From NCBI GenBank assembly GCA_964016885.1, contig OZ024741.1, positions 37,944,001 to 38,008,000 of the forward strand: a stretch of 64,000 nt of DNA, written 5' to 3'. Position numbers and translations under genes: made by a program. Position 1 is the first letter of the stretch. Each line of letters begins with the position of its first letter. The DNA is from Eledone cirrhosa. Its lineage: Eukaryota. The notes under the pieces are model-generated. The model saw only the letters and a program-made list of their open reading frames with translations, made no database searches and was not told where the DNA came from. Shown here piece after piece: positions 3,099-40,251 of this stretch.

Positions 3099-3293
3099 TA
3101 ACGAAGGAAATGTGGTAAGGAACCAGGTGGACCATAACGCACCAAAGTACTCAATACTTGAGGTAGTAGAGTGGGTAATAGGAACCAGTAAGACCCCGAC
3201 AGCTGAGCTCAAGCCGTTTCGACGGCTAATTCAGTCCAGAATTAGCCGTCGAAACGGCTTGAGCTCAGCTGTCGGGGTCTTACTGGTTCCTAT
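3099..3293. mobile_element. ~200-bp asymmetric hairpin element (HHR half-motif), copy 1
   Basis: Arms 3178-3232 / 3239-3293, inside (TA)n; same as 31098-31300 and 40041-40251. Confidence 0.85.
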
Positions 3294-4349
3294 ATATATA
3301 TATATATATATATGCTCTCTTAAATGTAATTATTGATAACCCAGCCATTCGGTAAGCGATAAGTCCCAGGTGAGACACAAACACTTTTAATTTACCAGAT
3401 TTCTGACTTTAAAGTTCCAATCTTAAATCTTGATTTCTCTATATTAATTTGTTATTTGTTTTCTGCCCTCTTCACTGTATAACCTTATATTTATATTTAT
3501 TTTAAGTTGAGATAGATTATAACACAAACACATTGAATATCTCATCTTAACATCTTGTATCATACCAATCTATCCAACATATTCTGACCTTGAGATTGGT
3601 TATAGCACACACACACACACACTTTATCCTACATTATTTCTCACTTCTCCATATACATTATCATTACTTTTTCACCAATCTCTCATTTACTCTTTATTCT
3701 TTATTCTCTATTTATTTATTTATTTTCAAATTACACAAATTATATTAATTATTTTATTTTATTATATTATTTATTTATCTTCTGTTTTCTTCATTTATTG
3801 CCTTATATTTCTTCATATACATGAAATAACCCCCCCCCCCCGCCACCACCACTACGATGGTGGCGGGTGGGATGAAGAGAAAACACAAACTGAATACTTC
3901 TAAACTGTTAGCAGCAGCAAGATATAAGCTGACCACTACAACAACAACAGTACCAAAATAATGGTCGAGGTCAAATGTACTGAACAATAGCAGGCATAAA
4001 CACTACAGGGAGCCTCACCCCAGAAAGAATTCTATAGACTTCTGACTGAGGAATGCTCTCAGAACTGAACAATGGGAAGTTTGACACATTTTTTGATATT
4101 TTGTTCCTTCAACACCTTGTCCCTTCTACCATTTTATCAATTTTTAAGCTAACTCCAACAATGACAACACTAATAACTGACCAATGAGAGGAGAAGGGGA
4201 CCTGTGACACTAAAATTCGTTTGTTTGAATTCATATGACTCCAGTTCCCCAGTGAATTAACAACCCAACAAGGAACTGGGCATATCAGAGTATTGACAAT
4301 ATCATACACCTAAACAACATATGTACTTGTCTATACCGTACTAATTCAA

Positions 4350-4404
4350 ACTGCCTGAAGAGGTCACAGCCAAAGATGGCTGTCACTGAAATATATATAG
4401 CAGT
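4350..4404 (+). ncRNA. Type I hammerhead ribozyme (CUGAAGA core) at the end of a pLTR-like segment
   Basis: ACTGC-CTGAAGA-GGTCACAGCC.aaagat.GGCTGTCACT-GAA-ATATATAT-A-GCAGT, followed by AATAAA. Confidence 0.85.
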
Positions 4405-4605
4405 AATAAACGAAGCTAAATTTTAATCATTTGACTTTTATTTAACTTTATTTTATATATATATATATAAGAAAGTGAGGTTTTTTTACGAAAAGAAAAA
4501 TAACCGAGGTATCCTACACGAGTGAAAGTATAAAGAAAAAAAGATGAAATCGAAAATGCAACTGGAGTCTTATTTTTTTAAAAAATATATATATTTATTT
4601 GGTTC

Positions 4606-4641
4606 CTTTACCGGTTTCGCAGTTCTTCTGCTTTTCAAAAG
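4606..4641 (-). ncRNA. Minimal hammerhead with U3:A8 core variant
   Basis: CTT-TTGAAAA-GCAG.aagaa.CTGC-GAA-ACCGGT-A-AAG. Confidence 0.6.
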
Positions 4642-5921
4642 TAGAGTTGAGATGGAGGGTCTGTGGTTTTTCTCACATCTGGTTGGTCTCTGAATGTTAC
4701 TTGTTTTATATGGAAAAAGTGGCTCGAAATGCCAGGTTTTTCGAGAAGTAATTTGATTGGTTGGTCAATAATTATAATAAATTTTGCGCCAGTTCGCGTT
4801 ACAAAGTTCTTCAAACAAGGGGGTGGGGTGAAACAGGTTGTTTTTTTTCATATATGAGTGTTTGAATTTCTTTTTACTTGAAAAAAGGGGCTCACGAAGG
4901 CTTTTTTTTTAATAAGCGTAATTTGATTGGTTATAAATGAAATTATGGCTGTCACGTAAACAAGTTTTCATTAAATTTTCGCGCCCTTATTTGGAAATCC
5001 ATTCTGTAGCCTTTTTAGAGAATTTTATGATAAGTAAAAGATAATGGTCAAGAGAAATGGGATGGGAGAATTGTTCTGGTTCAGTGAATATGGTTAGTTC
5101 ACTGGGGTCTCAGAATTCAGATTTTCCATTGAATAAAGAAAGTAAAGATATGTATGTTTATTTGTGTGCTTGTGTGTGTGTGTGTGTGTTGTGTGTGTGT
5201 GTGTTTAAATTTCTTTTTACTTAAAAAAAGGGGGGCTCACGAAGGCTTTCTTTTAATAAACGTAATTTGATTGTGTGTGTGTATATATATATATATACAC
5301 ACACACATATATATATACATATACATTATATACATTCATATAAAGGGGACGAATTAAAAAAATACAAAAATACAATACGTATGCTAGTCTGTTGTTATAT
5401 ATATATATTCCAGTTTAGAGGTTAGTCGGTGGTCTGATAACAGAGTCGTAGTCAACAAAAGAAGACAATCAATGGCCGCTGAAAACGGTGTGACAGAACC
5501 ATTGAAATTACTCTTTGTTACTTGTATGATTATTGTCAATAGAACGTCTCTGCTTCAAAGGATACTGCTGCCTTTTCAATGGGTTTATTTGGCGTGAACA
5601 TGACATACCTTCACGTGCTTTCATAGATACATGTAGGAAACATTAGTACATATTGCTTACTATAGACACACGCATTCTTTCTTACACACACATTCTTTCA
5701 TACACATATGTTTACGCACATACACACGCACACACGTTAACACATATAGTTTCACACACTCTCTCACATACACCATCAAAAATACATACATACACACACA
5801 CACACACACACACACACACACACACACACACACACACACACACACACACATATATATATATATATATATATATATATATATATATATATATATACACACA
5901 CACACACATAAACACACACAA

Positions 5922-37385: not shown

Positions 37386-37791
37386 ATCACACACACACAC
37401 ACATACACATATATATATATATATATGCACACACGCACACATACCCACACATACACACACATATATATATATATGCACACACGCACACACACACACACAC
37501 AAATATATATATACATATATATATATATAATTTTATTATATATATATATATATATATATATATATATATATATATATATATATATATATATATATATATA
37601 TACATACATACATATATATACAAAATATAGGTAAAAATTAAATATTATCCAATTACAAGTATGTAATGCCTCTTCTATCTTTGCTTTGTTCTCTTATATA
37701 AATGTTAATATCTATGCTTTCTTCCCATATTGTGTATTCTCAAAATATTCTTTGACAAGTTTATTTCTGTTTTAACCTTTGATTTGATTTA

Positions 37792-37838
37792 TACTCCGAT
37801 GATTCCGACCTTGGGCTTGGTTGAAATGATCGTTAGTA
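37792..37838 (+). ncRNA. Hammerhead-like motif with U4C core (CCGAUGA)
   Basis: TACT-CCGATGA-ttCCGA.ccttgggc.TTGGtt-GAA-ATGATCGT-T-AGTA. Confidence 0.55.
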
Positions 37839-38941
37839 ATTAAATGCTCTAAAATACTCTTTGATTGTTGTTTAAAAGTATACACACACACACACACACA
37901 CACACACACACATATATATATATATACATTTATATACGGATATATATATATATATATATATATATATGTATATATAATTAGGGAGGGTTATATTATTATA
38001 CTATTGCCAGAAATAATATATATATATATACACACACACACACACACACACACATATATATATATATATATATATATATATCTAAGGCGGGTAAAATTCC
38101 CGAGATCCATGGACGAGTTCTCTCCAACGGTCTCTGTCCCTCATTATCGCTGCCATATCCTGCATCTCCAACAGACCAGAGTCTGTCCTTAGGGTTACAT
38201 AACTACCTTATTCGAGTGGCACCGGTAAGGTATTGTCAGCCATTGAAAAGAAATATATATATATATATATATATATATATATGGCGGGTTTTGCAGTTTC
38301 CGTTAACTAAATTTCACATACAAAACATTGATTGGTCAACAACAAAACAAACAGTACTTCAAGGTACCCCGAGAGGTGACTGAACCCAGGATCAGGTGGT
38401 TACGTAACAAATCAACCATTCAGGTATACGTCATCCTATACCTATGTATATATACCTATATATACCTATATATATATATATATATATATATATATATATA
38501 TATATATATATATATATACATATACATATATATATATATATATATACATATATATATATATATATATATATATATATATATATATATATATATATATATA
38601 TATATATATATATACATACACCTATATATATTCCTATATATACCTATATATATATATATATACATATATATATATACATACACCTATATATATATATACC
38701 TATATATATATACGTATATATATATATATACCTATATATACATATATATATATATATACACCTATATATATATATACCTATATATATATACGTATATATA
38801 TATATATATATATATATATATATATATATATATATATATATATATATACCTATATATATATACGTATATATATATATATATATATATATATATATATATA
38901 TACCTATATATATATATACACCTATATATATATACCTATAT

Positions 38942-39960
38942 ACGTGGGAAAGTAAATAATCGGAGAATAGACCGTTAAAACATGTTTATTTAAAATATCA
39001 CCTACGTACGTTTCGCCCAGTTGGGCTTCTCAAGGGCATAAATAATCACAAGTGCTCCTTATATAGTTCGGAAAGAGTTTTGGGGGTTAAATCTACATCA
39101 AGATTCATTGCTCGCAAAAATATCTTGTTTTGATTTTGCAGCAGGTCAAGGGAGGTAACTCTGGCCGGTGTTAGGGCAGTCTTTCCCGGATAATTTTTTT
39201 TTTTTTTTTTTTTTCCCGCCGCATCGGTTTGTCTGAGGCTAGGTCTGGTGTGCAAGGATTGTTTTCTGGGTGTTATTTTGCTGCGCCTGCCCGCCGGGGT
39301 GTTAAGGCTTGCTGCAGGGAGATCCAGTGTACTATTTCACTCTTCATTCTTAACCCATCTAAAGAAGGATATTTTTAAGCGATGTGTACAACTTATCGCT
39401 GTTTCAGCTCTGCTGTTGATGAGCTCGTGGGGGTGCAGTTATGATATGGTAGAGCTCCATGAGGCAAAGATCGCATTTCCTCTTGAAGTTGTACGGTGCA
39501 GCCCTGCCGACAATCTCCCAGTGCGTGGAGAAGCTGATGTTTAAGTCCGGGAAAGACTGCCCTAACACCGGCCAGAGTTACTTCCCTTGACCTGCTGCAA
39601 AATCAAAACAAGATATTTTTGCGAGCAATGAATCTTGATGTAGATTTAACCCCCAAAACTCTTTCCGAACTATATAAGGAGCACTTGTGATTATTTATGC
39701 CCTTGAGAAGCCCAACTGGGCGAAACGTACGTAGGTGATATTTTAAATAAACATGTTTTAACGGTCTATTCTCCGATTATTTACTTTCCCACGTGCTTAC
39801 GCTCTGCTAACTCTCTAGCCCACTAAATATTAACACTTCAAATATTTAATACTGCCGGCACTAGTATCTAGCACCTTTGGCATACGCTACTTGGCAAATA
39901 ACTATATGTATCACCTATCCCTCCTTTTTCTCTCTTTCTCGATACGTAAATACTATATAC
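38942..39960 (-). mobile_element. Naiad-type PLE remnant: near-perfect ~249-bp inverted pLTR arms (38942-39190 / 39546-39794) around the GIY-YIG C-terminus
   Basis: Minus strand of the spacer reads WEIVGRAAPYNFKRKCDLCLMELYHII / LINSRAETAISCTHR (one frameshift), matching the C-termini of the 45 kb and 49 kb ORFs. Confidence 0.85.
39696..39740 (+). ncRNA. Minimal hammerhead with U3:A8 core (UUGAGAA); twin at 38996-39040 (-)
   Basis: CC-TTGAGAA-GCCC.aact.GGGC-GAA-ACGTACGT-A-GG. Confidence 0.75.
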
Positions 39961-40040
39961 CTATATATATATACCTATATATATACCTATATATATACCT
40001 ATATATATATATATATATATATATATATATGTATATATAT

Positions 40041-40251
40041 AACGAAGGAAATGTGGTAAGGAACGAACCAGGTGGACCATAACGCACCAAAGTACTCAAT
40101 ACTTAGGATAGTAGAATGGGTAATAGGAACGAGTAGGACCCCGACGGCTGAGCTCAAGCCGTTTCGACGGCTAATTCTGGACTAAAAACTTTAGTCCACA
40201 ATTAGCCGTCGAAACGGCTTGAGCTCAGCCGTCGGGGTTCTACTCGTTCCT
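40041..40251. mobile_element. ~200-bp asymmetric hairpin element, copy 3
   Basis: Same ends as copies 1 and 2; copy-specific substitutions are mirrored in both arms. Confidence 0.85.

Follow-up and report, generated by a model that had tools for sequence, protein, structure and literature searches.

Tailed hairpins in TA repeats of Eledone cirrhosa as probable head-to-head insertions of a Penelope-like element

The window analysed here, a 64-kb stretch of Eledone cirrhosa DNA, contains three hairpins of approximately 200 bases with common termini, as the original prediction had described; the limits of copies 2 and 3 were refined to those given in Table 1. A fourth copy, which that prediction had missed, is a tail without a hairpin and shares 90% identity with the family across 82 nt. 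The hairpin copies have arms of 55–64 bp and carry a tail of 79, 78 and 82 nt (copies 1, 2 and 3) on one arm only. They are dispersed, built head to head and devoid of a hammerhead core, and along the window copies 1 and 3 run tail first and copy 2 tail last. All three are flanked by (TA)n at both ends, which hides a TA target-site duplication; in copy 4, (TA)n directly adjoins the tail end and is separated from the opposite end by 7 nt. One terminus of the element is formed by an arm and the other by the tail, and the two are not complementary, i.e. there are no terminal inverted repeats. Copies 1 and 2 are identical except at the tip, and copy 3 is approximately 90% identical to copy 2. Folding of copy 2 yielded 60 perfect pairs and -138.4 kcal/mol (z -20.2), which none of 200 shuffles equalled.

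Table 1. Hairpin copies, motifs and related inverted repeats in the window
Feature	Position	Strand	Description
Copy 1	3099..3293	-	Tail 3099-3177; palindrome 3178-3293; 55-bp arms, 6-nt loop
Copy 2	31097..31301	+	Short arm 31097-31156, loop 31157-31161, long arm 31162-31221, tail 31222-31301; palindrome extent 31096-31222
Copy 3	40040..40253	-	4-nt duplication in tail; palindrome 40123-40253 with two arm mismatches; other subfamily
Copy 4	43380..43460	+	Tail without hairpin; first base is where the short arm of the other copies stops
Hammerhead-like 3' half, copy 2	31180..31202	+	GAAA, 6-bp stem III, loop centred on palindrome TGAGCTCA, then GUC
Tail motif YGAGTRS, copy 2	31246..31252	+
D1 (another family)	5929..6139	-	Hairpin joined inside stem II, CUGAUGA lost, tail on one arm
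G	24164..27856	-	Inverted repeats with hammerhead cores, one-sided 59-nt tail, RT/GIY-YIG-type ORF 24804-26216
K	48785..51227	+	Inverted repeats with hammerhead cores; GIY-YIG-type ORF fragment 49381-50226

All three hairpin copies contain GAAAC, a 6-bp stem III and GUC, and a CUGANGA..GAAA pattern was found neither inside any copy nor upstream of the GAAA of copy 2, which confirms the earlier statement that only the 3' half of a hammerhead is present. This remaining half ribozyme is predicted to be catalytically dead. In 20,000 dinucleotide shuffles of arm plus tail, the GAAAC-stem-GUC arrangement arose in 0.6% and any GAAA-stem-NUH in 6.5%. An Rfam search of the arm returned no hammerhead match, and the complete minimal core employed as a control was missed too. 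The tail motif YGAGTRS is also present, 4-23 nt from the tail start, in three unalignable families with complete hammerhead cores; it occurs in 9 of 17 tails and 4 of 12 groups, compared to 0.024 expected per 80 nt for a motif that was defined post hoc. A microRNA family search gave only scores far under the gathering threshold, e.g. 32.3 against 60 bits for mir-127. Exact patterns of the family had no match in metagenome contigs, viral contigs or prokaryote genomes, collections that are unlikely to include the host animal, so that these blanks are uninformative on a parent element.

The arms were compared over 54 nt, where they differ at 0, 0 and 1 sites within copies 1, 2 and 3 and at 3 sites between copy 3 and copies 1/2. 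Copy 3 has a second unmirrored arm mismatch closer to the tip. As copies 1 and 2 are identical, the window provides a single independent contrast, and the phasing of arms per molecule is based on the three window copies. The three changes are mirrored in both arms, as had been noted; however, all are frequent alleles of the family (29–89% in reads) rather than confined to copy 3, and copies 1 and 2 have minority alleles in common. All eight listed arm alleles, at six sites, were also present at the mirrored position. This read-level mirroring is unphased, in that reads lying inside one arm (5644 of 22036 in X24) can be placed on either, TA-anchored reads may derive from single-armed copies and allele frequencies vary up to threefold between placements. 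The tips differ in all three copies, even between the otherwise identical copies 1 and 2, and further tip variants are visible in contigs. The closer agreement within than between copies, the mirrored alleles and the differing tips together support the proposal that a single template, or templates of like sequence, gave rise to both arms.

The family is abundant, with 16406 X1 contigs and 22036 X24 reads on 207 nt; depth sums were not taken as a copy number. The X1 contigs are possibly the source of the window and are not independent of it. From the arm at 31222, 2726 raw reads pass directly into (TA)n (agreement 0.81). At 31157 and 31169, X24 read ends as well as loose ends coincide with AATT; they were left out as likely restriction-library effects. 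Variants across the tip were detected in X1 contigs (26-78 per listed site at 31158-31162), which, together with the same layout in many other families, makes an assembly artefact unlikely. At least 38 X1 contigs, among the loose ends listed, have a non-mirrored upstream end. The 30 visible letters of these extensions (38 X1 contigs and one X4 contig) pair imperfectly with the long arm, by eye with one G-U and an internal loop, hinting at a natural, imperfect stem II. Such pairing, like that of a natural stem II, indicates that longer templates exist. Two short upstream motifs were also searched for in the window; the sole match, with two mismatches, was unrelated.

The layout of the hairpins is repeated elsewhere in the window. 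In 9 of 16 other inverted pairs, one arm lies at most 2 nt from (TA)n and the other bears a tail of 54-96 nt; the remaining 7 lack this combination of flush arm and tail. As background, 2.4% of non-TA positions are within 10 nt of a (TA)n run. A complete hammerhead core (CUGANGA..GAAA match) is found in 6 of the 9 pairs, and 2 enclose RT/GIY-YIG-type ORFs. In the D1 pair (5976–6139), stem II is cut exactly as in the hairpin family, and complete ribozyme cores of the D1 family are located at 9870(-), 10012(+) and 30925(+). The G element does not align with the hairpin family; in the atlas clusters closest to its ORF, 12-90% of the members carry RVT_1, HTH_animal and GIY-YIG. Against Pfam, the three Penelope-like element (PLE)-type ORFs gave a single weak RVT_1 match (E 0.0024), and the PLE-type ORFs of the window showed no alignment with the hairpin family. 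In K, the tail is on the shorter, inverted copy. Among single-armed copies of family C, C3 and C5 stop at the arm end without a tail and C4 has one. In copy 1, B1 and K, the polarity of the unpaired spacer matches that of the tail-less arm. The left arm of D2 differs at 1 of 82 positions from another copy, and at 4 of 63 (local) or 15 of 85 (including stem II) from its own partner. The arms of family B, with 3 of 69 differences within B1 and 3 of 69 to B2, are uninformative on arm clustering. E1 was considered as a mixed-arm insertion and rejected, its own arms being 16/192 apart and E2 farther away (30/177, 39/184).

Insertions of EN+ PLEs consist of an inverted, 5'-truncated copy with a one-sided tail and a bias for (TA)n (Craig 2021, PMC8557442), and inverted Penelope junctions carry palindromes, according to the accessible part of Arkhipova 2013 (PMC3846280). 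The hairpins share with these insertions, as far as the available text of these articles goes (PMC3846280, PMC8557442), the head-to-head inversion, the junction palindrome, the tail at one end and a microsatellite target that masks the target-site duplication. In contrast to the descriptions available there, they lack an ORF or full pLTR, their junction is confined to the presumed stem II, and their tails of approximately 80 nt exceed the 30-40 nt published for PLEs in the main texts, whose supplements may list more. For Poseidon of Anolis (PAc), it was reported that both strands are cut and extended, that two internal RT start sites bound the tail, that a dimer is predicted and that uncleaved RNA serves as template; the joining step was not shown (Frangieh 2024, PMC11167929). 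The hairpins resemble PAc in vitro in their two fixed 3' ends bounding the tail, the AT-rich target and copying through an uncleaved hammerhead site. The PAc ORF begins at stem II (PMC11167929), whereas the open frame of the hairpin arm plus tail has no coding signal. An ORF start in that position was rejected, with one of three frames open and 11 of 26 listed variants synonymous compared to 8.6 expected (P=0.21); no longer protein relative was found at E<=0.01 among 15 candidates.

PLE hammerheads possess a palindromic loop 3, a long helix II and pairs of ribozymes on opposite strands (Cervera and de la Pena 2014, PMC4209133). Like these minimal type I motifs, the hairpins have C11.1-GAAA, a palindromic loop 3, a long helix II and opposite-strand pairs; they differ in containing the 3' half alone, with a stem III of 6 bp, where metazoan motifs typically have 0-2 bp (PMC4209133). 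Non-LTR retrozymes are likewise short and non-coding with a hammerhead region and, as is very probable for the hairpins, PLE-derived, but the available part of the preprint describes head-to-tail tandems with complete ribozymes, unlike the dispersed, head-to-head and coreless hairpins (bioRxiv 10.64898/2026.07.22.740005). Palindromic MITEs such as Made1 resemble them in the near-perfect hairpin, TA flanks and high copy number, yet, to judge from the accessible text on Made1, not in the asymmetric tail or in element ends without terminal inverted repeats (PMC1784062).

The reading favoured here is that the hairpins are severely 5'-truncated, head-to-head PLE insertions in TA repeats whose two halves were joined after two primings. 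A PLE protein would nick both strands of (TA)n and each nick would prime one cDNA on element RNA, starting at the pLTR end (the short-arm end) and approximately 80 nt further 3' (the tail end). Both cDNAs would come to a halt within the hammerhead's long stem II, short of CUGANGA, and their 3' ends would pair via the self-complementary tip before the gap is filled. Since both arms would read the same or sibling RNAs, alleles would be mirrored, outer ends fixed and the tip alone variable. A PLE origin is very probable. Its evidence comprises the common ends and architecture, the nine similar pairs, six of them with cores, and the ORF of G; it fits the earlier suggestion of an origin from a retroelement hammerhead region. 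On the other side, neither CUGANGA nor an ORF of the hairpin family was seen in the window, and the link to PLEs rests on architecture, a half-motif whose loose form arises in 6.5% of shuffles and the post hoc tail motif. That both arms are re-made at each insertion is likely, and the recurrent RT product postulated before agrees with published PLE insertion structure. Also in favour of the reading as a whole, D1 repeats the junction in stem II and has intact relatives in the window. The two-primer route appears the somewhat better account of the joining, given the family C ends, the spacer polarity in copy 1, B1 and K and the unlike arms of D2. The loop polarity of copy 1 could also have arisen through a later inversion plus deletion.

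How inverted, tailed PLE insertions form has been called unresolved (PMC8557442, PMC11167929), and a PLE origin would also accommodate a single cDNA that, begun at the tail end and arrested in stem II, folds back to copy itself and is joined through TAT microhomology. Perfectly mirrored arms and a junction within a natural stem would be expected from such a fold-back, the last bases of the short arm are TAT and match (TA)n, and related self-priming was proposed for Penelope inversions in the available part of PMC3846280. The tip of copy 3 is compatible with either route. However, fold-back leaves unexplained the fixed stop of the short arm, which is also used by the single-armed family C copies, and is at odds with the tail-less-arm polarity of the copy 1 loop and the B1 and K spacers and with the unlike D2 arms; it is considered unlikely. 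Alternatively, the hairpin itself might be a self-propagating non-autonomous retroposon whose copies are transcribed and then copied again by a PLE enzyme, by either joining route, the truncation point being fixed because the master ends there upstream. The equal truncation zone in all three hairpin copies, the near-identity and common minority alleles of copies 1 and 2, and the size of the family relative to the at least 38 X1 contigs, among the loose ends listed, with a non-mirrored upstream end would agree with this. Against it, these contigs with natural-stem-like pairing point to longer templates, D1, whose family includes intact ribozymes, has the identical cut, and no promoter is evident, so that self-propagation is judged quite improbable.

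The MITE-like hairpin family offered as an alternative in the original prediction is not supported, nor is a DNA-transposon MITE inherited whole, with arms later homogenised through gene conversion. Although the hairpins are short, non-coding, palindromic and abundant with TA at both sides, neither terminus is an inverted repeat of the other, all three copies carry a tail of 80 nt beyond the palindrome, two arm mismatches in copy 3 were left unrepaired and the identical layout surrounds RT-type ORFs in the window. The DNA-transposon reading is largely refuted and has very little probability left. Most likely, the hairpins are a new example of the known PLE pattern and no new element type.

As objects the hairpins are ordinary PLE debris, and their value is that of a data set. 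The fixed junction, the long tail and the abundance of the family are of interest for testing how PLE inversions form. Products of approximately 200 nt whose ends are fixed, whose tips vary and which fall into several subfamilies are suited to separating two-primer joining from fold-back, and loop polarity and same versus mixed arms are discriminators that can be counted in an abundant family. Perfect hairpins of this kind, if transcribed within introns or UTRs, would offer substrates to RNA editing or silencing. Should hairpin masters act as ribozyme-dead retroposons of 200 bases, with both arms re-made by a PLE enzyme through two primings, which is a long shot, the genome would hold a great many perfect double-stranded RNA substrates of 60 bp.

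The feature is real, and its probable identity is a new family within a known class: tailed stubs of a Penelope-like element (PLE), joined head to head. The three hairpins of the original prediction were confirmed at their positions. In each, 116-131 nt form an almost perfect palindrome, one arm of which is extended by 78-82 nt; all three are flanked by (TA)n on both sides, and copy 2 folds into 60 pairs without interruption (z -20.2). Copies 1 and 2 differ at the tip only, and copy 3 shares about 90% identity with copy 2. Over the 54 nt of arm compared, the two arms differ at 0, 0 and 1 sites within copies 1, 2 and 3, and copy 3 is set apart from copies 1 and 2 by three changed sites, the same ones in both arms. 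Copy 4 is a tail alone, starting at the base where the short arm stops in the other copies; it may have arisen by collapse of a hairpin or from a cDNA that was aborted. Seven non-TA bases with a faint likeness to the outer end of the short arm precede it, and on either side of it lies a direct repeat belonging to a different hammerhead family (43096-43203 and 43544-43650). What makes the family interesting is its long tail, its fixed stem-II junction and its use as a test set.

Coordinates of the hairpin unit and of other features in the window
Feature	Position	Strand	Remark
Copy 1	3099-3293	-	hairpin
Copy 2	31097-31301	+	hairpin
Copy 3	40040-40253	-	hairpin
Copy 4	43380-43460	+	tail
YGAGTRS-bearing tails	31222, 5929-5975, 11062, 20981-21048, 47640		motif 4-25 nt in; four unalignable families
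D1	5976-6139		family D inverted pair
D2	9753-10128		family D inverted pair
Intact hammerhead cores of D1's family	9870, 10012, 30925		
Third PLE-type ORF	45282-46979	-	565 aa; RT and GIY-YIG-like motifs; no Pfam hit; not alignable to unit
SINE-like family	860-1088, 6468-7066, 20479-20656, 22444-22937, 48131-48237, 55834-55955		
Two long non-LTR retrotransposon ORF regions	13906-17331, 58309-61743	-	RVT_1, E 4e-23 and 7e-24

Read tailward, the long arm carries C-GAAA, a 6-bp stem III with its loop centred on the palindrome TGAGCTCA, and then GUC. When arm and tail were shuffled together 20000 times, the exact form of this half-motif arose in 0.6% of cases and any GAAA-stem-NUH in 6.5%, so that the half-motif alone is modest evidence. 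The pattern CUGANGA..GAAA had no match inside any copy, and Rfam detected no hammerhead in the arm, but a neighbouring minimal core, complete and used as control, escaped it as well.

Among 24 runs listed, 14, which come from 10 studies, contained some of the unit's sequence words. Sequences from four runs were aligned to the unit, comprising 16406 contigs (X1) and 22036 raw reads (X24) from one organism, 40 contigs (X4) and a single contig (X5). The arm end is fixed far outside the window too, since 2726 X24 reads pass from the arm straight into (TA)n at 31222. At copy 3's first changed site its allele was found in 89% and 81% of reads at the two mirrored placements, the minority allele being that of copies 1 and 2; the values were 29% and 37% for the second site and 32% and 36% for the third. 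These alleles are common among reads, and the changes are subfamily markers. The predicted private mutations mirrored in both arms are thus mirrored, at three sites, and not private. For 6 sites of the short arm, 8 alleles are listed (the table has 57 further rows; low-support short-arm rows 31151 and 31153 and tip rows excluded), and every one of them recurs, complemented, at the mirrored long-arm site. This read-level mirroring is unphased, and frequencies at paired placements differ up to threefold. It exceeds a mapping tie, as (TA)n or the tail anchors most placements of the outer sites; single-armed copies are a possible source of TA-anchored reads.

Upstream of the tip, 38 X1 contigs and one X4 contig run on with non-mirror sequence. 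Aligned by eye with the long arm (GGCTAAAA vs TTTTAGTC), it forms 9 pairs and then, past an internal loop, another 8, of which one is G-U. It looks like stem II in its natural form, from a parent that is longer; CUGANGA is absent from the 30 letters visible there. Loose ends before 31216 (156 contigs, 2354 reads) mark a diverged subfamily in which both GUC and the palindrome GAGCTC are retained, a hint that loop 3 is under selection in source elements. X4 and X5 are labelled as other organisms and contain the unit at low depth (matches on 31169-31302), one contig being identical to it along 134 nt; this may reflect contamination, prey or environmental DNA, kinship or transfer.

Masked self-comparison of the window revealed numerous inverted pairs, 16 of which were tabulated besides the units after exclusion of three nested or very short ones. 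In nine, one arm lies no more than 2 nt from (TA)n, and the other bears a tail of 54-96 nt; seven lack this pattern. A loose CUGANGA..GAAA pattern matched an arm of six of these nine, and stem I and a palindromic loop 3 are visible at hammerhead cores in families B, D, F and K. The same layout is seen around complete ribozymes, and also around ORFs, two of the nine pairs enclosing 24804-26216 and 49381-50226. In the atlas clusters nearest to the former (0.95-0.97), 12-90% of members have RVT_1, HTH_animal and GIY-YIG, the top two clusters having no common family; the latter is 38% identical over 143 residues to the third PLE-type ORF. D1 is the closest analogue of the unit, with its hairpin joint within stem II and CUGAUGA lost. 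In D2 the stem II sequence is not the same in the two arms, and the left arm is almost identical to a copy at 30857-31024, which suggests two templates in one insertion. The 7-letter motif YGAGTRS, defined post hoc after the tails were inspected, is common to tails of the unit and families B, C and D (9 of 17 tails, 4 of 12 groups; chance expectation 0.024 per 80 nt) and is a candidate protein-binding signal near RT start sites.

Craig et al. (PMC8557442) describe PLE insertions that are biased towards (TA)n, contain an inverted copy truncated at its 5' end and have a tail of 30-40 bp at either end, and they term the formation of these insertions unresolved; a curation guide gives the same layout (PMC8969392). 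Arkhipova et al. (PMC3846280) report palindromes at head-to-head junctions and propose self-priming. According to Frangieh et al. (PMC11167929), a PLE protein cuts and extends both strands, two internal start sites bound the tail, and the main template is uncleaved RNA, with a dimer predicted. Cervera and de la Pena (PMC4209133) cover minimal hammerhead traits and opposite-strand pairs 100-700 bp apart. The literature search, which was not exhaustive, returned no description of the unit's family or of stem-II-fixed junctions.

Directly observed are the unit's architecture, fixed outer ends, variable tips and mirrored alleles. In the proposed mechanism, two nicks in (TA)n would each prime one cDNA, the first starting from the end of the arm and the second from that of the tail; the two would stall in stem II and pair via the self-complementary tip, and fill-in would complete the unit. 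Alternatively, a single tail-bearing cDNA could fold back on itself. Three window observations (family C ends, spacer polarity and D2) favour two primings, although the cases are few and mostly from other families. Family C copies with one arm terminate either where the arm ends (C3, C5) or beyond the tail (C4), which makes the arm end an independent priming site. In copy 1, B1 and K the unpaired spacer is part of the arm that lacks a tail, an outcome that fold-back of the tail-bearing cDNA does not yield, although a later rearrangement could be another origin in copy 1; in G the spacer is part of the arm with the tail. Fold-back is also at odds with the unlike arms of D2, one of them nearly identical to a separate copy, and the arm comparison in family B does not discriminate between the two. 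Between the recurrent RT product and the MITE-like hairpin family originally proposed, the RT product is largely borne out and the MITE is not; a self-propagating, ribozyme-dead hairpin retroposon is improbable.

E1, another inverted pair, was considered as a mixed-arm insertion and rejected after arm comparison. The SINE-like family, which probably resembles octopus SINEs, also makes inverted pairs (897-1055, 22444-22937). The C-terminal motifs of the two non-LTR ORF regions may resemble those of restriction-like endonuclease elements.
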